64,000 nt of DNA from Heterodontus francisci (Eukaryota): the NCBI RefSeq assembly GCF_036365525.1, contig NC_090421.1, forward strand, positions 1,747,982-1,811,981, in the 5' to 3' direction. Positions within the stretch are counted from its first letter, which is position 1, and every line of letters starts with the position of its first letter. This document shows positions 1-55,778 of this stretch, piece by piece. The notes under the pieces are model-generated. The model saw only the letters and a program-made list of their open reading frames with translations, did not search any database and was not told the origin of the DNA. The position numbers and the translations under genes are program-made.

Positions 1-39
1 GATTTGCTGGGGAGCAATTTCCCACTCCCACAACTTGCT

Positions 40-410
40 CTTCGCCTCTCCTGAAGGTGCTGATTCTTAGTTGGGGTACTGCTCCAGGTGCACCAGGCAC
101 TCTCCAGTACCTTGCCCAAGTGGCTATTGTCCATGTGTATGCCCAGTGAATGTTAGCAGGCTATCCATGCCTGGAGGGCATCACAGCCAAGCTGGGTTCT
201 GTTTTTAAATGATACCTAAGCATGTATTTTCTAGTGGGACTCATTGGAATCAGGAGCAGTAATCTAACTGTGCAGCTCAGGGATATCAAGGTCAAGGGTC
301 ACACTTGCACTAGTCAACTGGGCTGAGATACACTATCTCAACATAGACCAGGGATCAAACCTGGGACCTTCCTGGTCTGTGTGGCTGAGCTGCACACCAG
401 GCATGGAACC
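40..410 (-). mobile_element. Old tRNA-derived SINE, same family as 59365-59750
   Basis: Reverse-complement similarity, including CAGACCAGGAAGGTCCCAGGTTTGATCCC. Confidence 0.45.
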
Positions 411-1204
411 TACCAACTGAGCCCAACACTACCTTGACATGAATTCTGTAGAGTCATGTAGAAGATGTGTTGTGGACAGCTGTCTGTAATGTGATTAACG
501 TCTCCATAAATGAGGTTGATCAGATAACTTAAGTAGGTCCATTTCTCCTCTCGTATTGTTGGCCAGTGCATATCCTGCACTGGTGTCACTAGCAACAAAT
601 GTTCCAGAAAAACAAAACTAGAATATTTTGTAACTTTATACCTAAGACACTCAAACTGAGGCTACTTTATGATATTACTGCGTCACTCCGATCATTTTGT
701 ATTTCACTGACATTTCTCTAGCTGGGCGTTATGAATCAGGCCATTCAGAATAACCATGGCCAATTGTCACTCCGTGCTGTATATCTTTTCATACCACTGT
801 GGCTCACAAATTCTTGAATGCGCTTTTCAGATTAATATCCATTTGGTCTATGAGTTAAATTTCTAGCACAGAAGCAGAGTCCAAATCAGCCTACCCATAT
901 TGCACAACTACAGAACGACGAAGGAACAGCTGCAATTGTAATACTTTGGAAATTAAATTTTCTGACGCCGCATTCCACAAGTTCACAGGACACGCGGTGT
1001 AGATCAATCGCTTTCGGTGTATTTTGGGGTAGGGTGACATCCTTGCAATCAGTTTGGTTCCTGATACTTATATTGAAGATGGCATTTTTCTTTAAGTTGC
1101 AGACCGTTCTCCTTTACGTAATAAAATTCTATGTTTGGATCAGAGTAATATCCAATCAGAGATATGTATTAGTTGGCTATGATTATTTTTGATTTTTTTT
1201 GTAG

Positions 1205-1578
1205 CTGACCCCTGTGTCCAAGTGGATGGGAGCCCAAAATGTTGTTTTTTTAAATATAGCCCCAAAATAACATTTACAAACGTGGTGCGAGCTCACCTGT
1301 GGGTTTACCTGCGTCCAGTCCTGCACACCTCCACTATATACCTGCAGATCCTCAGGCTGAAACCCGTGACGGAGAAGGGCAGCAGGCATTCGCGGATCCG
1401 ATCCTTAAAAATTGACTTAAACTCCCGCAATGGACGCTGGCAAAGTATCGACTTTAAGCACGTGCTGCAGAACTGGTTCAAGCAACCTCACACCAACTGG
1501 GGCATTGAGATCAACGCCTTTGATATGAACGGCAACGACCTGGTTATCACATCTCCAGGAACTGGAGAGAAGGGACTG
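1205..1578 (+). CDS. GDF11: GDF11 coding exon 2 (TGF-beta propeptide)
   Basis: Polypyrimidine tract and AG at 1203-1204; GTGAGT donor at 1579; 374 nt. Translation DPCVQVDGSPKCCFF...RIRSLKIDL...WQSIDFKHVLQNWFKQPHTNWGIEINAFD resembles the GDF11 prodomain. Synteny with SARNP favours GDF11 over MSTN. Confidence 0.93.
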
Positions 1579-1655
1579 GTGAGTATCGTTCACTTTAAGT
1601 CCTCTGTATCAAGGAGATACATGTATCTCCAGTTTCAACAGCATCATACACATAT

Positions 1656-1696
1656 AGAGTTCTGATGAAGGGTCATTGACCTGAAACGTTAACTCT
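1656..1696 (+). ncRNA. Minimal type I hammerhead ribozyme motif (Penelope-type)
   Basis: AGAGTT-CTGATGA-A-GGGTC/ATT/GACCT-GAAA-CGTT-AACTCT: conserved core, 6-bp stem I, 5-bp stem II, palindromic ACGT stem III. Confidence 0.7.
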
Positions 1697-1795
1697 TGTT
1701 TCTCTCTCCACAGATGCTGCCAGACCTGCTGAGTATTTCCAGCACTTTTTGTTTTTATTTCAGATTTCCAGCATCTGCAGTATTTTGCTTTTATT
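1656..1795 (+). mobile_element. Short non-autonomous Penelope-derived repeat (pLTR-like)
   Basis: Matches the 3' end of the GIY-YIG fragment at ~17020-17100 and the copies at 5347, 8988 and 45735. Confidence 0.7.
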
Positions 1796-3439
1796 GCACA
1801 TGTGCTTAAAGATACCATCGTGTCAATGATCACCAATGCTAAAAAAAAAACTGTTTCCAATGGCAGGAGGGTGGGTAACCAGAGGACACAGATTTAAGAT
1901 AACTGGCAAAAAAAAAGAGGGACTAGGAGGAGGAAAAATGTTTATACAGCGCATTGTCATGATCTGGAATACACTGCCCAAATAGGACATCGGAGAGGCT
2001 GAACAGCACGGCAGAGCTTTTTAATAGTTTACTTCTGTTAATGTCCGTTTAAAGTATCTATTCCAGATAAAAATCACCGCTCAGCTGATTAAAGTGCTGG
2101 TGCGTGGAGCACAATTAAAACCTTATACGCCTGGACCAATTAACGCGACAACTGCAGTGCAGCAAAATTTGTTTTCAGCAGACACTCTGCCAAAGAGTTA
2201 AGTTGCTCCACTGTTGAATTAACCCCAGCTCAGTGGTTTGGCTAATTCCTAGCTAATCATTTTAATTCCCCCATTGGTGGAAAACTGATAAATTGTTATC
2301 TGAAGGGCCATTAAGAAGGCATGAACAGCCCTTCACGAGCAATTCCCCCTCCCACGTTCATGGGGCGTGGGCCAGGCCAGGCTGTATTGCCTTCAAGAAG
2401 GTGGTGGAGTCACCTTCTTGAACCGCTGCAGTCCATGTGATTCAAGTACTCTCGCAGTGCTGTTAGGAAGGGATGCAGACGTCTCAGAACGAGTTGTTTC
2501 AAATTTCACACCTTTCTCTTGGACAGAGACCTGACAGCACAAAGGGAAAAAGACGAGCACAGTTTTCTGCTAGCTTCAATGCAGATGTTAACTGCAGAAA
2601 ACATCTCCAGCAATTCGTGAGGCTACAATGATAGCTGTTGTAGGAAATGGAATTGCCACATGTGATGCAATAGGAGAGTACTGTTCTAAGGTTGTGGCAA
2701 CATAGCATAGCTTCCTGAGTAAATCCAATCCCACTAAAACAGATGACCTGTTTATTTATCACATTGCTGTTTGTGGAACTTTGGCGCAAATTTGCTGCTT
2801 TTTTAACATTACAACGACTACACTTTAAAAAGGTATCTCATTGGCTGTAAAGCAGTTTGGGACATTGAGTTTGTGAAAGGTGCAATATAAATGCAAATTC
2901 TTTCCTTATAATGGCTAAAGAATTCCTTGCTTACATAGCTGTGTTCCAACATGCTTGACGTCTCCATACGCATCACTACAGCACACTCATTCCCTTATGC
3001 TCCTGAAGACATGGACTCATGGTGAGATATGGCTCCACATGCACCAAAAGCCCTATTTTACTTGAGCGAGCCTAAACATTGAGTGTCGCAACTAATTTGG
3101 CTGGGAATGAGGAGTAGGGGCAGCAAACCTGTTCCTAGCCTCATCATCCAAACAATTGAAGCTCATCCAAGTCAATGGCAAGGGCTTTGTGCTTGACAAT
3201 ATTTACAGCTCGCCATTATCATTTTGCAGACCTGGTCTTACCTGACCAGTCCTATTCATTAATCCACATGGTGGAGAGCAAATGCATACTCATAGGAGGA
3301 GGTGCAACACTGGGAATCCAGCTAGGTACACCACCATAATTTTCCTTTACTCATGAAGATTGAATGAGAAAACAGAATTGAACAGTGTCTCACCTTAAGG
3401 CACGCTGGGAGTAACATTCCTCCCAGCATGCAATGGTAA

Positions 3440-4025
3440 GTGGTTGTTAGGAGTATGCAAATTTCAACAATGTGTCTTAAATGGAAATGGCTACTGGGAA
3501 TATGTGAATTCTAACACATTTAAACTGACTGCTGGAAGTATGGGAATGTGAATTTGAACAATAAATTTGAACAATAAATTTAAAATGTCTACTTAGCATA
3601 TGTGAATTTTAGCAATGCATTTAAAATGGCTGCTAAGGCTATGTGAATTGTAATAAAGCGCATAAAATGGCGAATAGGAATATGTGAATTTTAATAAGAA
3701 TAAATCAAATCTAACTGCACATTCAAGATATGTTCTGAAATTGGGCTGCACCGAAACATAAACTTGCTGACCGACATTTCAAGCATTTCCAGAATCCGCA
3801 ATAACTTGCATTTAAATTGCTGCTGGGATTTTAGGAACGTTCTCAATGTTTTTAAACTGACTTCTGTGAATACGCGAATTTTAACACATTTTGTAATCAT
3901 TCTATGAAATCTGCTAGGTGTATGTGAATATTGGCAATCTATTAAAGATGGTTGTTAACAATCTCCTAAATTTAACTGTGTATTTACAATGGCTGTTTGG
4001 AGTATCAACATTTTGACAATGCGTT
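3440..4025. repeat. Degenerate AT-rich ~40-bp tandem repeat
   Basis: Recurring AAAATGGCTRCTAGGAATATGTGAATTTTAACAATGCATTT-like units. Confidence 0.7.
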
Positions 4026-4209
4026 AATTTCCGACACTGCGTGCGGAGTGAATGGCGCTAACTAGCACGGAGGAATAAATCAAGGCATTTTGCATTTGAT
4101 TTAATATTTTGCCTGTTGTCCTATTGTAGCAGAGCAGATTTAGTATTATCGTGGCATTATGAAGGTTTATCGATACACTTCAATGAAAATGTTTATTTTC
4201 TTTTAACAG

Positions 4210-4590
4210 CAACCATTCCTGGAAGTCAAAGTGGCAGAAACAAACAAACGTACACGGCGAAACCTCGGGCTGGACTGTGATGAGCACTCCACGGAGTCGC
4301 GCTGTTGCCGCTACCCGCTAACAGTTGATTTTGAGGCCTTTGGCTGGGACTGGATTATTGCTCCTAAACGATACAAAGCCAACTACTGCTCCGGTCAATG
4401 CGAGTACATGTTCATGCAGAAATACCCACATACCCACTTGGTGCACCATGCCAATGCCCGGGGCTCAGCAGGCCCCTGCTGTACCCCAACCAAAATGTCG
4501 CCCATCAATATGCTTTACTTTAATGACAAGCAACAGATCATCAACGGGCAAATTCCAGGCATGGTGGTTGATCGATGTGGCTGCTCTTAA
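4210..4590 (+). CDS. GDF11: GDF11 coding exon 3 (furin site and 109-aa mature TGF-beta domain)
   Basis: ttttaacag acceptor; QPFLEVKV...RTRR|NLGLDCDEH...[12 protein letters not shown]...FNDKQQII...[14 protein letters not shown]11-type residues present (NLGL, QCEYMFM, D89, Q91, G100); 9 cysteines. Confidence 0.95.
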
Positions 4591-5346
4591 AAGCAAAAAA
4601 AAAAAAATCAACCAAACTTCCTTTCCCCTGTCCTTGGGAACTGAAACGTTCATTGTTCTTCAATGTTACGTTAAAACTACACCATGCGCTGTGCAATAGC
4701 GGACAAAGAAATAGAGAATTAGGCCTCAAGGTGGAGTCTCATCATCAGGAAACCTTTTTAAAAACGAGCTAGTTAATAAGAACTAGGACTAATTTTGATT
4801 CCAGATTTCGGTTTTCTTCCCCTCCCACACACAGTGACTGCTGATGGCATTATTAGAGCAAATCATTTTGGAGGTGTTACTATGAGTGAAATAAATTAAC
4901 ATATTCAAAAGTGAAGGCAAAGCACCCTGGGTAAATTGTATCAACTGACCTGAGTTTTGTTTCCATACAGGCTTTGAATCAGTAACCCTCCAAGACCTTG
5001 TCCGCGATGATGCCATCAAACCTCAGTTTAGACAAAAACTAATTTTTAACAAAAGAGAAAGATCAAGTGGGTGTTGATGGTACATCAAATGATTCTGTAC
5101 AATAGTTTGATTGCTTTTTTAAACAGGGAGTGCCGACAGTGGGACTTTAAGAAAAGCAGTCTAAATATGGAGCAGGGATGCTCTTAAAGTTTACAAATTC
5201 TTCCTCAAAAAATGTTTGTGAAGACGTCAGTCAACTGTAGACAGACGAAGTCCTGGAGAGGAAGTGTAATTTTTATTCATAGCTGAACTCATTCACCTGA
5301 AAGAGAAAACCTAGGAAGGCAAAGAAAGTTTGGGACGAGACCCAGA

Positions 5347-5465
5347 ATAGTTTTAATGAAGGGTTTAACCCTAAACATTAACTTATCTCTTCTAGCCGCC
5401 TGACCTACTGTGCATTTTCAGCATTCTATGCTTTTATTTCAGACTTCCGATTTTTGTATTTTTCC
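5347..5465 (+). mobile_element. Degenerate Penelope-derived short repeat
   Basis: Diverged match to 1656-1795; hammerhead core decayed (TTAATGA...TAAA). Confidence 0.5.
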
Positions 5466-6269
5466 TTCACCTTTACTCAAAGTACTGAACAATTGAGAAA
5501 GTCTCCTAACAGGAAACCTTTTTAGCTTCTTTCACTGAAGAATTTGGTACATTTGCGATCACACCCTTACCCAACCCAACCCATCAAAGCTTTAACTCAA
5601 GGGGGAGTGGAATATAAATGGGAAGGAGGCAATGTTTCAGTTTTATAGAACTTTGATCAAACTATACCAGAAATGATACCAGGGCTAAAAGGGTTAAATT
5701 ACAAGGTCAGGTTGCACAGAGTAGGGCGGATATAATCGAGATGTATAAAATGAGTTGATAGGATCGAGAGAAACTATTTCCTCTGGTGGGATAGTCCAGA
5801 ACAAGGAAGCATAACGTTAAAATTAGTTAAACCATTCAGGGGTGATGTCAAGAAGCACTTATTCATACAAAGGATAATGGAAATCTGGAACACTCTCCCT
5901 CCACCGCACCACCACCACCACCCCAAAACCAAAAGCTGTGGATGATGTGGGTCAATTGTAGCTTTAGAGGGTGAGATCGCGAAGTTTTTATTAATGGCGA
6001 CTCTATCCAAAAGAGTGTACCTTGACCACAGTGCCGAAGATGGAATGCGTTCTCACTTCTGGCACCCAGTGTCAACATCAAGCGCTTGAGATCAGTGGCA
6101 AGCTCCCTCCTCTCTGCTCAAGTCAGTACTAAGCGTTCCTTCTGATTTACCAGCCATGATTTTCCTGTTTATTAAACTGAATGGGGGCAAAATCACAGGC
6201 TGACGAGAATGTGAACCAAAGCTCAGTCAATCTTGGAACTATCTGTGCAAAGAACAAGTAAAGAAGTAG

Positions 6270-8987: not shown

Positions 8988-9090
8988 TAATAAAAACAAG
9001 AAATGCTGGAAATACTCAGCAGGTCTGGCAGCATCTGTGGAGAGAGAAGCAGAGTTAACATTTCAGGTCAGTGCCCCTTCTTCAGAGCTC
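8988..9090 (-). mobile_element. Penelope-derived short repeat
   Basis: Reverse complement of the 1656-1760 type; CTGAAGA...GAAATGTTAACTC. Confidence 0.65.
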
Positions 9091-16284: not shown

Positions 16285-17100
16285 GACCTCTGCCATTTCT
16301 GCCACCTCCAGCATGATGGCAAATACAGCTACCCTCCCCACTTCTGCATTCTGAAGGAACCATTCCCTCCATAACACTGTGGTCCACTTCTCAATCACCC
16401 TCTCCCCTTCCCACAGAAACTTTCCATGCAAGGACAGGAGATGCAACATCTACCCTTTCACCATCTCCCTTCTCACCATCCAGGGCCCCCAAATAATCCT
16501 TCTAGGTGAATGGCGATTTATTGTACTTTTCAATTTAGTATACTGTATTCAGTGCTCATGGTGCAGTCTCCTATACATTGGCGAGAGAAAACAGACTGGG
16601 TGAACACTTGGTGGAACACCTTGGTTCAGTCCACGATTGTGACTGAGCTTCCGGTTGTCAAGTAAATTCTCCACCCCATTTGCACTCAGCCTCCCACGCT
16701 GTTCCAATGAAGCTCAATGCAAGCTTGAGAAAGAGCACTTTATCTTCTGATTAGACACTTTACAGCCCTTCAGATTCAACATGGAGTTCAACAATTTCAG
16801 ATTATAATCTCTGTCCCCATTTACTTATTGAATGGCAGCTGTTGATTCTGCTGTTCCCATTTATGTCTCTAGACCCATTTTCTGTTTCTTTACTTGTCCC
16901 ATCACCCCTTGTTATTTAATCACTCCTGTCTTCAACTCTAACGCAGGCCTTCCTTTTTGTTCTTCACACATCACCACCTTTGTACTTGCTTAAAACCTGC
17001 TACATCTCTATCTTGTTCCAGTTCTGACAAAAGGTCATTGAGCTGAAACATTAATTTTGTTCCTCTTTCCACAGATGCTGCCTGACCTGTTGAGTATTTT
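16285..17100 (+). mobile_element. Penelope-like element 3' fragment (GIY-YIG endonuclease remnant plus terminal repeat)
   Basis: Remnant translation VYCIQCSWCSLLYIGE is the GIY-YIG/CxxC motif of Penelope-like elements; ends in a decayed hammerhead-bearing repeat. Confidence 0.7.
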
Positions 17101-21885: not shown

Positions 21886-22234
21886 GGGCGACACAGTGGC
21901 GCAGTGGTTAGCACCGCAGCCTCACAGCTCTAGCGACCTGGGTTCAAATCCAGGTACTGCCTGTGTGGAGTTTGCAAGTTCTCCCTGTGTCTGCGTGGGT
22001 TTCCTCTGGGTGCTCCGGTTTCCTCCCATATGCCAAAGACTTGCAGGTTGATAGGTAAATTGGCCATTAATAATTGCCCCTAGTATAGGTAGGTGGTAGG
22101 GAAATATAGGGACAGGTGGGGGATGTGTTAGGAATATGGGATTAGTGTAGGATTAGTATAAATGGGTGGCTGATGGTCGGCACAGACTCGGTGGGCCGAA
22201 GGGCCTGTTTCAGTGCTGTATCACTAAACTAAAC
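21886..22234 (+). mobile_element. HE1-like V-SINE, full length
   Basis: tRNA A/B boxes; V-domain (GTGGAGTTTGCAAGTTCTCCC...GCTCCGGTTTCCTCCCA); CR1-type tail; (CTAAA)n end. Confidence 0.85.
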
Positions 22235-24494: not shown

Positions 24495-24839
24495 ATTAGA
24501 TTAGATTAGATATACAGCACTGAAACAGGCCCTTCGGCCCACCGAGTCTGTGCCGAACATCAACCACCCATTTATACTAATCCTACACTAATCCCATATT
24601 CCTACCAAACATCCCCACCTGTCCCTATATTTCCCTACCACCTACCTATACTAGTGACAATTTATAATGGCCAATTTACCTACCAACCTGCAAGTCTTTT
24701 GGCTTGTGGGAGGAAACCGGAGCACCCGGAGAAAACCCACGCAGACACAGGGAGAACTTGCAAACTCCACACAGGCAGTACCCGGAATCGAACCCGGGTC
24801 CCTGGAGCTGTGAGGCTGCGGTGCTAACCATTGCGCCAC
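24495..24839 (-). mobile_element. HE1-like V-SINE
   Basis: Reverse complement of 21886-22234; (AATCT)n tail; possible GAATG target-site duplication. Confidence 0.85.
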
Positions 24840-31924: not shown

Positions 31925-34900
31925 ATTTTTTTTTTTTTTAATTATTCATTCATGAGATGTGGGCGTCACTGGCTAGGCCAGCATTTATTGCCCATCCCTA
32001 ATTTCCCTTGAAGGTGGTGGTGAGCTGCCTTCTTGAAACACTGCAGTCCATTTGGGGTAGGTATACCCACAGTGCTGTTAGGGAGTTCCAGGATTTTGAC
32101 CCAGCAACAATGAAGGAACGGTGATATAGTCCCAAGTCAGGATGGTGTGTGACTTGGAGGGGAACTTGCAGGTGGTGGTGTTCCCATGCATCTGCTGCCC
32201 TTGTCCTTCTAGATGATAGAGGTCACTGGTTTGGAAGGTGCTGTCTAAGGAGCCTTGGTGCGTTGCTACAAAGCATCTTGTAGATGGTACACACTGCTGC
32301 CACTGTGCGTCGGTGGTGGAGGGAGTGAATGTTTGTAGATGGGGTGCCAATTAAGCAGGCTGCTTTGTCCTGGATAGTGTTGAGCTTCTCGAGCATTGTT
32401 GGAGCTGCACCCATCCAGGCAAGTGGAGAGTATTCCATCCCTCTCTTGACTTGTGCCTTGTAGATGGTGGACAGACTTTGGGGGGAGTCCAGAGGAGAGT
32501 TACTCGCCGCAGGATTCCTAGCCTCTGAACTGTTCTTGTAGCCACGATATTTACATGGCTACTCCAGTTCAGTTTCTGGTCAATGGTAGCCCCTAGGATG
32601 TTGATAGTGGGGGAATTCAGCGATGGAAATGCCGTTGAATGTCATGAGGAGATGGTTAGATTCTCTCTTGTTGGAGATGGTCATTGCCTGGCACTTGTGT
32701 GGCGCGAATATTACTTGCCACTTATCAACCCAAGCCTGGGTTTTGTCCAGGTCTTGCTGCATTTCTACACGGACTGCTTCAGTATCTGAGGAGTCATGAA
32801 TGGCGCTGAACACTGTGCAATCATCAGCGAACATCCCCACTTCTGACCTTATGATTGAAGGAAGGTCATTGATGAAGCAGCTGAAGATGGTTGGGCCTAG
32901 CACACTACCCTGAGGAACTCCTGCAGTGATGTTCTGGAGCTCAAATGATTGACCTCCAACAACCACAACCATCTTCCTTTGCGCTAGGTATGACTCCAGC
33001 CAGCAGAGGGTTTTCCCCGATTCCCATTGACCTCAGTTTTGCCAGCGCTCCCTGATGCCATACTCGGTCAAATTGCTGCCTTGATGTCAAGGGCAGTCAC
33101 TCTCACCTCTGGAGTTCAGCTCTTTTGTCCATGTTTGGACTAAGGCTGTAAATGAGGTCAGGAGCTGAGTTGCCCTGGCGGAACCCAAACTGAGCGTCAC
33201 TGAGCAGGTTATTGCTAAGCGAGTGCCACTTGATGCACTGTTGATGACACCTTCCATCACTTTACTGATGAATGGTAGGCTGATGGGGCGGTAATTGGCC
33301 GGGTTGGACTTGTCCTGCTTTTTGTGAACAGGACATACCTGGGCAATTTTCCACATTGCCGGGTACATGCCAGTGTTGTAGCTGTACTGGAACAGCTTGG
33401 CCAGGGGCACGGCCAGTTCTGGAGCACAGGTCTTCAGTACTACTGCCGGAATATTGTCAGGGCCCATAGCCTTTGCAGTATTCAGTGCCTTCAGTTGTTT
33501 CTTGATATCACGCAGAGTGAATCGAATTGGCTGAAGTCTGGCATCTGTGATGCTGGGGACTTCAAAGGAGGCCGGGATGGATCATCAACTCGGCACTTCT
33601 GGCTGAAGATGGTTGCAAATGCTTCTGCCTTATCTTTCGCACTGATGTGCTGGGCTCCCCCATCATTGAGGATGGGGATATTTGTGGAGCCACTGCCTCC
33701 AGTTAGTTGTTTAATTGTCCACCACCATTCACGGCTGGATGTGGCAGGACTGCAGAGCTTCGATCTGATCTGTTGGTTATGGGATCGCTTAGCTCTGTCT
33801 ATCGCATGTTGCTTACGCAGTTTGGCACGCATGTAGTCCTGGGTTGTAGCTTCACCAGATTGACACCTCATTTTGAGGTATGCCTGGTGCTGCTCCTGGC
33901 ATGCACTCCTGCACTCTTCATTGAACCAGGGTTGGTCTCCTGGCTTGATGGTAATGGTAGAGTGGGGAATATGCCAGGCCATGAGGTTACAGACTGTGGT
34001 TGAGTACAATTCTGCTGCTGCTGAAGGCCCACAGTGCCTCATGGATGCCCAGTTTTGCATTGCTAGATCTGTTCGAAATCTATCCCATTTAGCATGGTGG
34101 TAGTGCCACACAACACGATGGAGGGTATCCTCAATGTGAAGGCGGGACCTCGTCTCCACAAGGACTGTGCGGTGGTCATTCCTACCAATACAGTCATGGA
34201 CAGACCCATCTGCGGCAAGCAGATTGGATGAGGACGAGGTTGAATAGGTTTTACCCTCTTGTTGGTTCCCTCACCACCTGCCGCAGACCCAGTCTAGCAG
34301 CTGTGTCCTTTAGGAATCAGCCAGCTCGGTCAGTAGTGGTACTACTGAGCCACTCTTGGTGATGGACTTTGAAGTCCCCCACCGAGTACATTCTGCACCT
34401 TTGCCACCCTCAGTGCTTCCTCCAAGTGCTGTTCAACATGGAAAAGTACTGACTCATCTGCTGAGGGAGGGTGTAGGTGGTAACCAGCAGGAGGCTGCCT
34501 TGCCCATGTTTGACCTGATGCCACAAAACTTCATGGGGTCCGGAGTCGATGTTGAGGACTCCCAGGGCAACTCCCTCCCGACTGTATACCACTCTGCCGT
34601 CACCTCTGCTGGGTCTATCCTGCCGGTGGGACAGGACATACCGGGGGATGGTGATGGCAGTGTCTGGGACATTGTCTGTAATGTATGATTCTGTGAGTAC
34701 GACTGTCAGGCTGTTGCTTGACTAGTCTGTGGGACAGCTCTCCCAACTTTGGCACAAGCCCCCAGAAGTTAGCAAGGAGGACTTTCCAGGGTCGACAGGG
34801 CTGGGTCTGCCGTTGCCTAGGTCGATGCCGGGTGGTCCGTCCGGTTTCATTCTTTTTTTATTGACTTTGTAGCGGTTAAATACAACTGAGTGGCTTGCTA

Positions 34901-38927: not shown

Positions 38928-41753
38928 TACGAAGTCAATAAAAAGGAATGAAAGCGGACGGACCACCCGGCATCGACCTAGGCACCGGAAACGACAACGG
39001 CAAACCCAGCCCTGTCGACCCTGCAAAGTCCTCCTTACTAACATCTGGGCGCTTGTGCCAAAGTTGGGAGAGCTGTCCCACAGACTAGTCAAGCAACAGC
39101 CTGACATAGTCATACTCACGAATCATACCTTACAGATAATGTCCCAGACACTGCAATCACTATCCCTAGGTATGTCCTGTCCCACCGGCAGGACAGACCC
39201 AGCAGAGGTGGCGGGACAGTGGTCTACAGTAGGGAGGGAGTTGCCCTGCGAGTCCTCAACATCGATTCCGGACCCCATGAAGTCTCATGGCATCAGGTCA
39301 AACATGGGCAAGGTAACCTCCTACTGATTACCACTTACTGCCCTCCCTCAGCTGATGACTCAGTACTCCTCAATGTTGAACACCACTTGGAGGAAGCACT
39401 GAGGGTGGCAAGGGCACAAAATGTACTCTGGGAGGGGGACTTCAATGTCCATCACCAAGAGTGGCTCAGTAGCACCACTACTGACCGAGCTGGCCGAGGA
39501 CATCGCTGCTAGACTGGGTCTGGGGCAGGTGGTGGGGGAACCAACACGAGGGAAAAACATACTTGACCTCGTCCTCACCAATCTGCCTGCTGCAGATGCT
39601 TCTGTCCATGACAGTATTGGTAGGAGTGACCACCGCACAGTCCTTGTGGAGACGAGGTCCCGCCTTCACATTGAGGATACCGTCCATCGTGTTGTGTGGC
39701 ACTATCACCATGCTAAATGGGATAGATTTTGAACAGATCCAGCAATGCAAAACTGGGCATCCATGAGGCGCTATGGGCCATCAGAAGCGGAATTATACTC
39801 AACCACAATCTGTAACCTCATGGCCCGGCATACCCCCACTCTACCATTACCATCAAGCCAGAAGACCAACCCTGGTTCAATGAAGAGTGCAGGAGGGCAT
39901 GCCAGGAGCACACCTCAAAATGAGGTGTCAACCTGGTGAAGCTACATCACAGGACTATCTGTGTGCCAAACTGCATAAGTAGCATGCGATAGAGCTAAGC
40001 GATCCCATAACCAACAGATCAGATCTAAGCTCTGCAGTCCGTGACTGGTGGTGGACAATTAAACAACTAACTGGAGGAGGTGGCTCCACCAATATCCCCA
40101 TCCTCAATGATGGGGGAGCCCAGCACATCAGTGCGAAAGATAAGGCAGAAGCATTTGCAACAATCTTCAGCCAGAAGTGCCGAGTTGATGATCCATCTCT
40201 GCCTCCTCCTGAAGTCCCCAGCATCACAGATGCCAGACTTCAGCCAATTCGATTCACTCTGCGTGATATCAAGAAACTACTGAAGGCACTGGGACCGCAA
40301 AAGCTATGGGCCCTGACAAAATTCCAGCAATAGTACTGAAGACCTGTGCTCCAGAACTTGCAGCGCCCCTAGCCAAGCTGTTCCAGTACAGCTACAACAC
40401 TGGCATCTACCCAGCAATGTGGAAAATTGCCCAGGTATGTCCTGTACACAAAAAGCAGGACAAGTCCAACCCGGCCAATTACCGCCCCATCAGCCTACTC
40501 TCAATCATCAGCAAAGTGATGGAAGGTGTCATCAACAGTGCCATCAAGCGGCACTTGCTTAGCAATAACCTGCTCAGTGACGCTCAGTTTGGGTTCCGCC
40601 AGGGCCACTCAGCTCCTGACCTCATTACAGACTTGGTTCAAACATGGACAAAAGGGCTGAACTCCAGAGGTGAGGTGAGAGTGACTGCCCTTGACATCAA
40701 GGCAGCATTTGACCGAGTATGGCATCAAGGAGCCCTAGCAAAACTGAGGTCATCACTGCAGGAGTTCCTCAGGGTAGTGTCCTAGGCCCAACCATCTTCA
40801 GCTGCTTCATCAATGACCTTCCTTCAATCATAAGGTCAGAAGTGGGGATGTTCACTGATGATTGCACAATGTTCAGCACCATTCGTGACTCCTCAGATAC
40901 TGAAGCAGTCAGTGTAGAAATGCAGCAAGACAATGACAATATCCAGACTTGGGCTAGTAAGTGGCAAGTAACATTCGCGCCACACAAGTGCCAGGCAATG
41001 ACCATCTCCAACAAGAGAGAATCTAACCATCTCCCCTTGACATTCAACAGCATTACCATCGCTGAATCCCCCCACTATCAACATCCTAGGGGCTACCATT
41101 GACCAGAAACTGAACTGGAGTAGCCATATAAATACCGTGGCTACAAGAGCAGGTCAGAGGCTAGGAATCCTGAGGCAAATAACTCACCTCCTGACTCCCC
41201 AAAGCCTGTCCACCATCTACAAGGCACAAGTCAGGAGTGTGATGGAATACTCTCCACTTGCCTGGATGGGTGCAGCTCCAACAACATTCAAGAAGCTCGA
41301 CACCATCCAGGACAATGCAGCCCGCTTGATTGGCACCCCATCTACAAACATTCACTCCCTCCACCGACGCACAGTAGCAGCAGTGTGTACCATCTACAAG
41401 ATGCACTGCAGCAATGCACCAAGGCTCCTTAGACAGCACCTTCCAAACCCGCGACCTCTACCACCTAGAAGGAACAAGGGCAGCAAATACATGGGAACAC
41501 CACCACCTGCAAGTTCCCCTCCAAGTCACACATCATCCTGACTTGGAACTATATCACCGTTCCTTCACTGTCGCTGGGTCAAAATCCTGGAATTCCTTTC
41601 CTAACAGCACTGTGGGCATACCTACCCCAAATGGACTGCAGCGGTTCAAGAAGGCAGCTCACCACCACCACCTTCTCAAGGGCAATTAGGGATGGCCAAT
41701 AAATGTTGGCCTGGCCAGCTTCGCCCACATCCCATGAATGAATAAAAAAAAAA
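38928..41753 (+). mobile_element. Second copy of the same APE-RT LINE, lacking the head
   Basis: PDIVILT, GDFN, QFGFR, DIKAAFD, GVPQGS, FTDD motifs; tail ...CCCACATCCCATGAATGAATAAAA; inverted relative to 31925-35192. Confidence 0.9.
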
Positions 41754-45151: not shown

Positions 45152-47236
45152 CTCATCAGAGTTATACAGCACAGAAACAGGCCCTTCGGCCCACCATGTC
45201 CGCGCTGGCCATCAAGCCCATTTATTGTAATCCCATTTTCCAGCACTTGGCCCATAGCCTTGTATGCTATGGCGTTTCAAGTGCTCATCTGGAAACTTGT
45301 TAAATGTTGTGAGGGTTCCTGCCTCTACCACCCCTTCAGGCAGTGTGTTCCAGATTTCAATCACCCTCTAGGTGAAAATTCTTTTCCTCAAATCCCCTCT
45401 AAACCTCCTGCCCCTTAACTTAAATCTATGCCCCCTGGTTACCATCATCTCCGCTAAGAGAAAAAGTCTCTTCCCATCTATCCCATCAATGCCCCTCAAT
45501 TTCGTATACCTCAATCAGGTCCCCCCTCAGCCTTCTCTGCTCGAAGGAAAACAACCCTAGCCTATCCAGTCTCTCTTCATAGCTGAAATGCTCCAGCCCA
45601 GGCAACATCCTGGTAAATCTTCTCTGCACCCTCTCCAGTGCAATCACATCCTTCCTATAGTGTGGTGACCAGAACTGTACACAGTACTCCAGCTGTGGCC
45701 TAACTAGCGTTTTTATACAGCTCCATCATAACCTAAAATAAAAGCAAAATACTGCGGATGCTGGAAATCTGAAATAAAAACAAGAAATGCTGGAACCACT
45801 CAGCAGGTCTGGCAGCATCTGTGGAAAGAGAAGCAGAGTTAACATTTCGGGTCAGTGACCCTTCTTCGGGTCTATGCCTCGGCTAATAAAGGCAAGTATC
45901 CCATATGCCTTCCTAACCACCTTATCTACCTGTGCTGCTGCCTTCAGTGATCTATGGACAAGTACACCAAGGTCCCTCTGTACTTCCTCGGGTCCTACCA
46001 TCCATTGTATATTCCCTTGCCTTGTTACTCCTCCCAAAATGCAACACCTCACACTTCTCAGGATTAAATTCAATTTGCCACTGCTCTGCCCATCTTACCA
46101 GCCCATCTAGATCATCCTGTAATCCAAGGCTTTCCTCCTCACTATTTACGACATCACCAATTTTCATGTCATCTGTGAACTTACTGATCATACCTCCTAT
46201 ATTCACGTCTAAATCATTAATGTACATTACAAACAGCAAGGGTCCCCGCACCGATCCCTGTGGTGCACCACTGGTCACAGGCTTCCAATTGCAAAAACAA
46301 CCCTCGACCATCACCCTCTGCCTCCTGCCACTAAGCCAATTTTGGATCAAGTTTGCCAAATTGCCCTGAATCCCATGGGCTCTTGCCTTCTTAACCAATC
46401 TCCCATGCGGGACCTGATCAAAAACCTTACTGAAGTCCATGTAGACTACATCAACTGCTTTAAACATCTAATCACCTCCTCTGAAAATTCAATCAAATTT
46501 GTTAGACAAGATCTCCCCCTGACAAAGCCATGCTGACTATCCCTGATTAATCCCTGCCTCTCCAAGTGGAGATTAATCCTGTCCCTCAGAATTTTTTCCA
46601 ATAGTTTCCCTACCACTGATGTTAGACTCACTGGCCTGTAATTACCTGGTTTATCCCTACTACCCTTCTTGAATAATGGTACCTCTCCTGTGGCCAGAGA
46701 GGATGTGAAAATTTGCATCAGAGCCCCTGCAATCTCCTCCCTTGCCTCACATAGCAGCCTGGGATACAACTCATCTGGGCCTGGGGATTTATCCACTTTT
46801 AAGCCCACTAAAACTGCTAATACCTCCTCCCTTTCAATGCTAATATGTTGAAGTATATCACAATCCCCCTTCCTGATCTCTACACTTACATCGTCCTTCT
46901 CCATAGTGAACACAGATGAAAAGTAATCATTCAAAACCTCACCTATGTCCTCTGGCTCCACACACAGATTGCCACTTTGGTCCTTAATGGGCCCTACTCT
47001 TACCCTGGTTATCCTCTTGCCTTACGATTTTCCTTTGTCTTGCCCGCCAGTATTATTTCATGCCCCCTCTTCGCTCTCCTAATTACTTTTTTTTTTTTTA
47101 AGTACCCCCCTACACTTTCTATACTCCTCTAGGGCCTCCGCTGTTTTCAGCCCTCTGAATCTGCCTTAGCCTCCTTTTTTTCCCCCCTTATCCAATCCTC
47201 TATATCCCTTGACATCCAGGGTTCCCTGGGCTTATT
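45152..47236 (-). mobile_element. CR1 LINE (ORF2 RT region)
   Basis: KSPGPD, NYRPVSLTS, QHGF, DFSKVFD, KFTDD; its 3' tail matches the V-SINE tail. Confidence 0.9.
45735..45870 (-). mobile_element. Penelope-derived short repeat nested in a CR1
   Basis: CCGAAGA-A-GGGTCACTGACCC-GAAATGTTAACTCT...; interrupts CR1 ORF2 sequence. Confidence 0.75.
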
Positions 47237-48351: not shown

Positions 48352-49088
48352 GCGCTCCGACGAGGTGCCGCCGCCGGCACCCAGCGTTTAGCGCTCCGAC
48401 GAGGTGCCGCCGCCGGCACCCAGCGTTTAGCGCTCCGACGAGGTGCCGCCGCCGGCACCCAGCGTTTAGCGCTCCGACGAGGTGCCGCCGCCGGCACCCA
48501 GCGTTTAGCGCTCCGACGAGGTGCCGCCGCCGGCACCCAGCGTTTAGCGCTCCAACGATCTGCCACCGGCACCCAGCGTTTAGCGCTCCAACGATCTGCC
48601 GCCGGCACCCAGCGTTTAGCGCTCCGACGAGGTGCCGCCGCCGGCACCCAGCATTTAGCGCTCCGACGAGGTGCCGCCGCCGGCACCCAGCGTTTAGCGC
48701 TCCAACGATCTGCCACCGGCACCCAGCGTTTAGCGCTCCGACGATCTGCCGCCGGCACCCAGCGTTTAGCGTTCCGACGATCTGCCGCCGGCACCCAGCG
48801 TTTAGCGCTCCGACGATCTGCCGCCGGCACCCAGCGTTTAGCGCTCCGACGATCTGCCGCCGGCACCCAGCGTTTAGCGCTCCGACGATCTGCCGCCGGC
48901 ACCCAGCGTTTAGCGCTCCGACGATCTGCCGCCGGCACCCAGTGCTTAGCACTCCGACAATCTGCCGCCGGCACCCAGTGCTTAGCGCTCAGACGAGGTG
49001 CCGCCGCCGGCACCCAGCGTTTAGCACTCCGACAATCTGCCGCCAGCACCCAGCGTTTAGCGCTCCGACGATCTGCCGCCAGTGCCTA
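48352..49088. repeat. GC-rich minisatellite, 39/36-bp units, ~20 copies
   Basis: Unit GCGCTCCGACGAGGTGCCGCCGCCGGCACCCAGCGTTTA (39 bp) and a 36-bp variant. Confidence 0.97.
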
Positions 49089-51106: not shown

Positions 51107-51438
51107 GTTTTAGTTTTAGAGATACAGCACTGAAACAGGCCCTTCGGCCCACCGAGTCTGTGCCGACCATCAACCACCCATATATACTAATCCCATATTC
51201 CTACCACATCCCCACCTGTCCCTATATTTCCCTACCACCTACCTATACTAGGGGCAATTTATAATGGCCAATTTACCTACCAACCTGCAAGTCTTTTGGC
51301 TTGTGGGAGGAAACCGGAGCACCCGGAGGAAACCCACACAGGCACAGAGAGAACTTGCAAACTCCACACAGGCAGTACCCAGAATTGAACCCGGGTCGCT
51401 GGAGCTGTGAGGCTGCGGTGCTAACCACTGCGCCGCCC
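51107..51438 (-). mobile_element. HE1-like V-SINE
   Basis: Same family; (CTAAAA)n tail. Confidence 0.85.
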
Positions 51439-55004: not shown

Positions 55005-55778
55005 CGGAATGCCTCATCACCAGAACTTTCAAACAAGCACCAAGATGTAGCTTGGCTGGTGGTGAGAAGAGCCCTCCCCGTCAGATCCTTCCTGCATGCC
55101 CGAAGTCTCGCCCCCTCCACACAATGCCCCCGCGGTGGCTGTGGTGGGGAAGAGACGGTCGCCCACCTCCTCCTGGAATGTGACTTTGAAAAGCAGGTGT
55201 GGAAGGAGATGCAGTGGTTTTTGTCGAGGTTCATCCCAAGCAGCTCTGTAACACAGGAGTCTGTGCTCTACGGGCTGTTCCCAGGGACGCAGACCGAGAC
55301 AAACATCAACTGCTGCTGGAGGACTATCAATTCGGTCAAAGACGCCCTTTGGTCTGCTCGAAACTTGCTGGTCTTCCAGCGAAAAGAGTTGTCAACCACC
55401 GAATGTTGCAGACTGGCACATTCCAAGGTCCAGGACTACGTGCTGAGGGACGCACAAAAGCTTGGGGCAGCCGCAGCAAAGGCTCAATGGGGAAAGACCA
55501 CAGTGTAAGGTCCCCCCACCAAGCTGAACTGAGGGGCTGGATCCATGGGAAACCCCTCCAACTGTATCGGGAAAATTTCTGTCTCCTGTATAATGTAAAA
55601 ATGTATCTGGCAGGACAAATGTGAAATGGAAGGGTTGTGAGGCAACTCATAATTGTATAGAAGGAAACTGATCACCTTTGCACTGTTTGTATTTTTTGAC
55701 TTGATGCTGTTTTAAACTGTTTGGGGAATGTAATTTTTTACAGATTTTTATGAATAAAGTATATTTTGGAAAAAAAAA
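55005..55778 (+). mobile_element. Tx1/L1-clade LINE 3' fragment, copy 1
   Basis: zf-RVT-like CPRGGCGGEETVAHLLLEC; AATAAA and A-tail. Confidence 0.85.

Follow-up and report, generated by a model that had tools for sequence, protein, structure and literature searches.

The hammerhead motif and its setting in GDF11

The window, which is the whole stretch of shark DNA analysed (64 kb), contains exons 2 and 3 of GDF11, and a minimal type I hammerhead motif lies between them (Table 1). Over 126 aa, the exon 3 frame is identical (100%) to P0002, a GDF11-like protein from a shark; its identity to a ray GDF8 is 89%. Exon 1 is ∼61.7 kb upstream, which places the motif in intron 2. It starts 77 nt into the intron, in agreement with the distance first proposed (the exon 2 donor is G/GT at 1578/1579), and the predicted cut site is 112 nt beyond the donor.

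Table 1. Features of the GDF11 region and of the repeat family; positions are those of the window unless a locus (L) is given.
Feature	Position	Strand	Basis or remark
GDF11 exon 2, TGF-beta propeptide	1205–1578	+	Pfam TGFb_propeptide, tblastn with P0002, splice sites read
Possible 5′ copy of a target site duplication, uncertain	1647–1655	+	7/9 matches to 1795–1803, not adjacent
Minimal type I hammerhead motif	1656–1696	+	Letters, control search, folding
Stem I strands	AGAGTT 1656–1661, AACTCT 1691–1696	+	Read from letters
Outer two stem I pairs, likely host flank	1656–1657	+	Upstream letters, D/E contigs through 1660
5′-truncated terminal fragment (pLTR + tail), Neptune-like Penelope element	1658–1795	+	Repeat alignments, parent elements
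Core CTGATGA (CUGAUGA)	1662–1668	+	Read from letters
Extra A between A9 and 10.1	1669	+	Read from letters
Stem II, 5 bp, G-U closing pair	GGGTC 1670–1674 / GACCT 1678–1682	+	
GAAA	1683–1686	+	Read from letters
Palindrome ACGT (ACGU), in place of helix III	1686–1689	+	
Cleavage triplet GTT	1688–1690	+	Predicted cut after 1690
Acceptor-like pyrimidine tract and AG (1712–1713), carried by element	1694–1713	+	Second AG at 1762–1763
GDF11 exon 3 coding part, mature TGF-beta domain	4210–4590	+	Protein comparison, tblastn, Pfam
Older repeat copy, core destroyed, 72% identity	5349–5449	+	3′ of stop and first AATAAA (4890)
Repeat copy; stem I, stem II and palindrome damaged	8989–9089	-	Alignment, letters
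Longer repeat copy with 3′ UTR, core damaged	16829–17099	+	Alignment, letters
Repeat copy, CCGA-core subfamily; stem I and palindrome damaged	45736–45872	-	Alignment, letters
∼730-bp inverted-end element	L070:4742–5476, L162:8057–8774, L182:3131–3855; also L046, L143, L172		

The letters and coordinates of the original prediction all match the sequence, on the sense strand. The CUGANGA core, GAAA and NUH are present in type I order; helix III is absent, and the palindromic 15.1–16.1 positions would permit a dimer. A descriptor that required CUGANGA, GAAA, UH and minimum lengths of 3 bp for stem II and 5 bp for stem I has a single match in the window; in 40 Markov-1 control sequences the rate was 0.05 per 64 kb. 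In Rfam, positions 1–6000 gave three chance matches and no hammerhead at E≤10, which is expected for a motif without helix III.

The account of stem I can be refined. The six pairs that had been described do pair, but the element supplies only four of them (AGTT/AACT) and not the outer two. The native upstream letters of the element are YC (34,132 motifs, an exact genome-wide count), whereas AG precedes stem I in 1,160 motifs, versus 1,028 with a GA control (genome-wide). Since AG is no commoner than GA, its lengthening of stem I is an accident of the flank, and the same two counts rule out both fold-back and selection as origins of the extra pairs. The extra base after A9 is A in 51/55 sampled copies. 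The G10.1-C11.1 pair is replaced by G-U in the window copy, and the position still pairs; this closing G-U is a subfamily trait (9/50 copies) rather than private damage. With a canonical CUGA core and a 6-bp stem I, the window copy is better on paper than the youngest parent elements.

The motif forms the first 39 nt of a 138-bp repeat (1658–1795), which matches four other places in the window. It is a single copy without a neighbouring unit, and a retrozyme-type tandem is absent. Clear 12–16 bp duplications flank solo copies elsewhere (L035, L036, L128, L137, L140, L160, L179 and L217). The two acceptor-like AGs of the element are preceded by tracts with 16/18 and 15/18 pyrimidines. In GDF11 intron 1 (L071–L077), there are two family insertions in ∼62 kb, versus ∼3.4 expected (55 per Mb), which is not a significant difference.

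Other repeats were seen in the window. An inverted pair of LINE-type, RT-bearing copies (31932–34871 and 38928–41753; 2.8 kb, ∼90% identical) is separated by 4 kb, and a GC-rich minisatellite with open frames on both strands lies at 48352–49080. The frame at 55005–55508 has a zf-RVT domain (Pfam E 4e-11), and represents the 3′ end of a non-LTR retrotransposon. A ∼340-bp repeat that is very common in the genome sample occurs at 21896–22232, 24501–24839 and 51109–51434; one copy of it interrupts the Penelope copy L021.

For the orthologous site, organisms D and E (one study) each contribute one contig, which aligns without gaps to 1200–1660, with 26 differences, and runs on for 77 unaligned letters past 1660. 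The site is covered by contigs from two of four runs, and among the joints listed none spans the element. An element at the D/E site would have extended the alignment, and this gives a hint, and only a hint, that the insertion may be lineage-specific and that 1656–1660 may be host letters.

The Penelope family and its parent element

A repeat search of the 6.0 Gb genome gave 1,206 first-look candidates, 40 of which were scored. Upstream sequence is common to 11 of 29 other fetched loci, and its translation contains pieces of RT and GIY-YIG. With the endonuclease part as query there were 102,486 first-look candidates; of the 150 scored, at least five loci (L111–L115) have open frames of 924 aa. 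In L111–L115, this RT-endonuclease frame is flanked on both sides by a 138-bp sequence that is 90% identical to the window copy. The structures are partial tandems, with repeats 98–99.8% identical and a hammerhead at both ends, so that the parent hammerhead is preceded by the 3′ UTR of one unit and followed by the frame of the next. The original prediction had proposed a Penelope-type minimal hammerhead that needs a dimer, and the parent element is thereby identified in the same genome. At L113 (211–2904 and 6476–10000), on a small contig, young Penelope units have inserted into tandem arrays with periods of ∼122 bp and ∼66 bp.

The 924-aa frame matches the Pfam domains RVT_1 (450–588, E=5e-6) and, C-terminally, GIY-YIG (826–857, E=0.004), both below the gathering cut-off, and has 1,551 homologues, with RVT_1 in most of those listed. 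Weak RVT_1/GIY-YIG matches also occur in two of five decayed fragments. The L111 translation contains a CxxC inside the GIY-YIG stretch (the two cysteines that the CCHH motif places between GIY and YIG) and a C-x4-C-xx-C linker just before the endonuclease. Counted from stem I, the long frame has its first ATG ∼170 nt further downstream. By the criteria given in the part of PMC8557442 consulted, the parent appears to be of Neptune or Nematis type, and we call it Neptune-like.

Abundance was estimated from 161 evenly spaced, non-random 10-kb regions on large contigs (1.6 Mb of called bases; one region is all N), by a profile search for segments reaching the motif or tail. The 108 segments found form 88 insertions, 20 of which are inverted pairs, and extrapolation from this sample suggests ∼4×10^5 segments in the genome. 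In the first 1.2 Mb, coverage of the last 100 bases of the element exceeds that of the 5′ half of its frame by a factor of ∼60. Genome-wide, the window 37-mer has 83 exact copies. A pattern comprising core, stem II, GAAA, palindrome and a 3-bp stem I gave exact counts of 18,099 core-complete motifs with CUGA and 35,829 with CCGA (∼54,000 together), while reversed-pattern controls gave 0. The corresponding expectation for a 66-kb gene is 0.10 sense copies with the CUGA core, and 0.30 of either core kind. The family is also common to organisms C, D, E and F, as contigs of all four runs pile up on the repeat (27,000–52,000 contigs aligned per run, a figure that includes a second repeat nearby). 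The ∼54,000 motifs are no record, since axolotl is reported to have 126,247 type I motifs (PMC7229834).

Relative to the family majority, the window copy has one private difference in 84 scored columns (∼1% diverged). Since the whole 138-bp element is retained at this divergence, the window copy is a recent insertion. Across 50 copies, changes affect 15/479 core columns and 100/2524 tail columns (p=0.44); the core decays as fast as the tail, so that the copies decay neutrally and an intact core requires no selection. The core (CUGA or CCGA) and palindrome are still present together in 23/55 sampled copies.

The stem II closing pair is G-C in 22, A-U in 15 and G-U in 9 of 50 copies, with two unpaired, two unaligned, and A-C never seen; the position is thus paired in 46/48 aligned copies. 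Private divergence is 7.6% for U4/A-U copies (n=13, the oldest), 1.9% for U4/G-U (n=9) and 1.8% for C4/G-C (n=20), and the youngest members carry the closing G-C. A path from A-U through G-U to G-C would fit selection on stem II in master elements, although it represents three lineages and not independent events. The CUGA core and G-U pair did not arise by CpG decay, since the changes are one-sided: positions 6/7 have T in 29 and A in 3 cases, and positions 25/26 have T in 27 and A in 2. A CpG at 30/31, by contrast, shows decay in both directions (7 and 15).

The youngest, ORF-intact and most numerous subfamily has a CCGAAGA core (U4C), and accounts for the larger of the two genome-wide counts (35,829 vs. 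18,099). U4C reduces in vitro activity in a viroid, according to the portion of PMC3088659 consulted, and the most successful lineage may therefore bear a weakened ribozyme. With intact young elements, three subfamilies and U4C, the family offers a test bed for whether cutting by PLE hammerheads is required.

The 3′ ends of the segments fall at two points ∼34 nt apart (+103 and +137), with 34/108 at +97 to +111 and 55/108 at +134 to +138. These two end points correspond to the 30–40 bp optional tail of PLEs. In the Anolis element PAc, reverse transcription is described as primed internally at two tail sites (PMC11167929).

The 5′ ends are also concentrated. In 25/88 insertions an arm starts at -5 to +5, versus 19 anywhere in -339 to -6. 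The native upstream letters are kept in at most 34,132 of the ∼54,000 core-complete motifs, and the native three upstream letters are missing in at least 37%, partly through mutation. The start of stem I reads YYANWYY, which we take to be the initiator consensus, a loose one of 7 bases. The element transcript would likely start at this initiator-like sequence overlapping stem I, and the 5′-end pile-up at stem I is in this sense a prediction of the transcript start. An internal promoter without TATA is reported for Drosophila Penelope (PMC2377424). The pile-up might alternatively be due to a 3′ splice site at +2/+3, as for D. virilis, where an intron is reported to end at helix I (PMC4209133), or to stalling at the fold. 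In several inverted structures (L027, L028, L025, L050 and L111:6282–6521, with such turns being frequent) the 5′ structure turns at a tiny hairpin that stem I makes with the initial bases of the core, which would look like a new DNA strand folding back at the 5′ edge of the ribozyme.

If the transcript does start at stem I, internal priming at tail sites near the RNA 5′ end would lead to run-off after 100–137 nt, and would yield "ribozyme-only" insertions. The window copy, which spans +1 to +138, would be a typical product of such priming. Judging from the literature, the ribozyme would act only as a dimer or when protein-bound, as a step in the cycle of the element, and a lone copy in a host intron would have neither a dimer partner nor a bound element protein.

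Cleavage, splicing and the likely fate of the motif

We consider it highly probable that the GDF11 motif is a minimal hammerhead heading a recent 138-bp fragment of a high-copy PLE, and that it would be transcribed, spliced out with the intron and degraded uncut. In practice, it likely does nothing to GDF11. The original prediction had inferred that the motif could cut GDF11 pre-mRNA if paired with another copy. In its fuller form, the contrary claim is that cutting at 1690 occurs at a rate of consequence, with a copy in trans, a substrate in intron 1 or the element protein, and so lowers GDF11 output where the element is active. This is quite unlikely, although several features speak for it: the canonical CUGA core, the palindrome and the sense orientation; tens of thousands of potential partners, with young intact coding copies among them; and protein-assisted cleavage, shown for an Anolis PLE hammerhead (PMC11167929). 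As the family is abundant, and partly young and intact, trans partners and element protein may exist in some cells. On the other hand, the integrity and orientation of the copy are no sign of host use, since tens of thousands of motifs are equally intact.

Partner, fold and precedent all speak against the claim. A scan of introns 1 and 2 of GDF11 found no intact partner copy. The only other sense copy in these introns (L071:7425–7552) is in intron 1, ∼4.2 kb upstream; its sequence begins past CUGAUG, and AUGU stands where the palindrome would be. Having lost CUGAUG, it could not serve as the enzyme, but could be a substrate strand. Intron 1 holds in addition one head-less inverted pair. The predicted monomer fold pairs the core with the cleavage strand (folding z-score -1.8), and stem I has a predicted probability of 0.05–0.14 in the pre-mRNA context. 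The predicted energy of the double hammerhead is -17.5 kcal/mol, versus -32.3 for the best two-molecule fold, which is inactive, and -22.6 for two monomers; the active dimer is thus ∼15 kcal/mol above the two-molecule minimum, with energies that omit tertiary core contacts. In the published work consulted in part, a min-HHR monomer is uncleaved while dimers and trimers cleave little (PMC4209133), and one of nine Xenopus retrozyme dimers was cleaved (bioRxiv 10.64898/2026.07.22.740005). For the Anolis PLE hammerhead, the sections consulted of PMC11167929 describe cleavage only with the element protein, no RNA-seq ends at the cut site, and cleavage that is dispensable for insertion in vitro.

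Among the sampled copies, 5′ ends at the cut site disappear when insertions of a second transposon are allowed for. Starts at +28 to +38 occur in 9/68 solo segments, and the eight inspected adjoin the end of another transposon-like element; in three of these eight, the split halves of the same copy are both visible. Copies starting at the cut site are therefore rejected as evidence of cleavage. An element ∼730 bp long with inverted ends (Table 1) has entered the hammerhead repeatedly, on or close to the cleavage triplet, and its insertion seems to duplicate 3 bp. It resembles a Harbinger-type MITE with a target preference.

A different effect on GDF11 would arise if the acceptor-like sites of the element (1712–1713 and 1762–1763) captured the exon 2 donor, giving a decayed message and no mature ligand. 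The sites lie in sense orientation at 135 and 185 nt from the donor, each at the CAG end of a strong pyrimidine tract, and their capture is predicted to lead to a stop after 31 or 21 codons, respectively. We regard this as quite improbable: all copies of the family, which number in the hundreds of thousands, carry these sites, so that they must usually be tolerated, and the genuine acceptor (4209) is undamaged. An intronic ribozyme that is domesticated and conserved, of the type found in RECK and other amniote genes, would match the intronic location, sense orientation and intact core, and such cases exist (PMC6155905). It is nevertheless very improbable, given the missing helix III, the youth implied by ∼1% divergence over the whole 138 bp, and, as a hint, the contigs of two organisms that diverge at the start of the element (past 1660). 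A chance match to the hammerhead consensus might be argued from the z-score, which is just -1.8, and from the lack of an Rfam match. With the control expectation of 0.05 per window, a stem II closing pair that covaries as A-U, G-U and G-C across subfamilies (46/48 paired), and a location that fits where PLE hammerheads are described, chance can be practically discounted; membership in the family refutes it.

A broader speculation, which we also think improbable, is that expressed young Penelope protein or abundant RNA switches on sense intronic hammerheads, which would make up thousands of the ∼54,000 core-complete motifs, so that host pre-mRNAs are cut in trans. GDF11 would be one target, in view of its canonical core, its stem I lengthened by the flank and its cut site 112 nt beyond a donor. 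If true, this would be a transposon-gated brake on a growth-patterning gene, and if the element protein can switch on lone intronic copies, there would be thousands of conditional cut sites in shark host genes. The preferred reading remains that of an inert fragment: as found, the GDF11 motif matters little, as min-HHRs in truncated Penelope ends have been known since 2014.

Comparison with known systems

Min-HHRs were described in 2014 in the pLTRs of metazoan PLEs, including fish Neptune, Poseidon and Xena (PMC4209133), and judged by its letters the GDF11 motif belongs to this terminal-repeat class. As in the motifs of that report, so far as consulted, it is of type I and has no helix III, a palindrome (15.2–16.2 there), an extra base between A9 and 10.1, a short helix I and a location in a PLE terminal repeat, and the copies are mostly lone ones from truncated elements. 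The sole departure is at 10.1–11.1, where G10.1-C11.1 is a highly conserved tendency in min-HHRs and the window subfamily has G-U, in a stem II of 5 bp. The ∼54,000 core-complete motifs compare with ∼4,000 in coelacanth and ∼9,000 in Xenopus, with search methods that differ. The parts of PMC4209133 and the one supplement file searched name no shark, and a literature search at title and abstract level, with subscription papers mostly outside its coverage, gave no report of the motif or of this shark family.

The Neptune EN+ PLEs (PMC8557442, in part) share with the parent element a single frame for RT and C-terminal GIY-YIG, the CCHH motif, the CX2-5CxxC linker, pLTR-forming partial tandems, inverted 5′-truncated copies and a 30–40 bp optional tail; the window differs in that it holds just the last 138 bp. 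The linker is given there as common to Neptune and Nematis, and absent in Poseidon. The Anolis Poseidon element PAc (PMC11167929, in part) is alike in having a hammerhead near the ORF start and two 3′ end points that define a tail. Its ORF starts inside stem II, whereas the first ATG of the shark element is well downstream of stem I, and the shark protein has the linker zinc finger that Poseidon is without.

Amniote intronic hammerheads, such as that of RECK, are also intronic and of type I, but are described in the portion consulted of PMC6155905 as canonical, low-copy and conserved, while the window motif is a minimal and young one, among tens of thousands. Non-LTR retrozymes, which are reported in one chondrichthyan (bioRxiv 10.64898/2026.07.22.740005, in part), resemble the window copy in being short, non-coding and related to PLEs, and in bearing a type I hammerhead (see also PMC7229834). 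They are, however, tandem repeats of ∼170–400 nt that yield circular RNA (PMC7229834, as far as consulted), whereas the window contains a single truncated end fragment with one motif.
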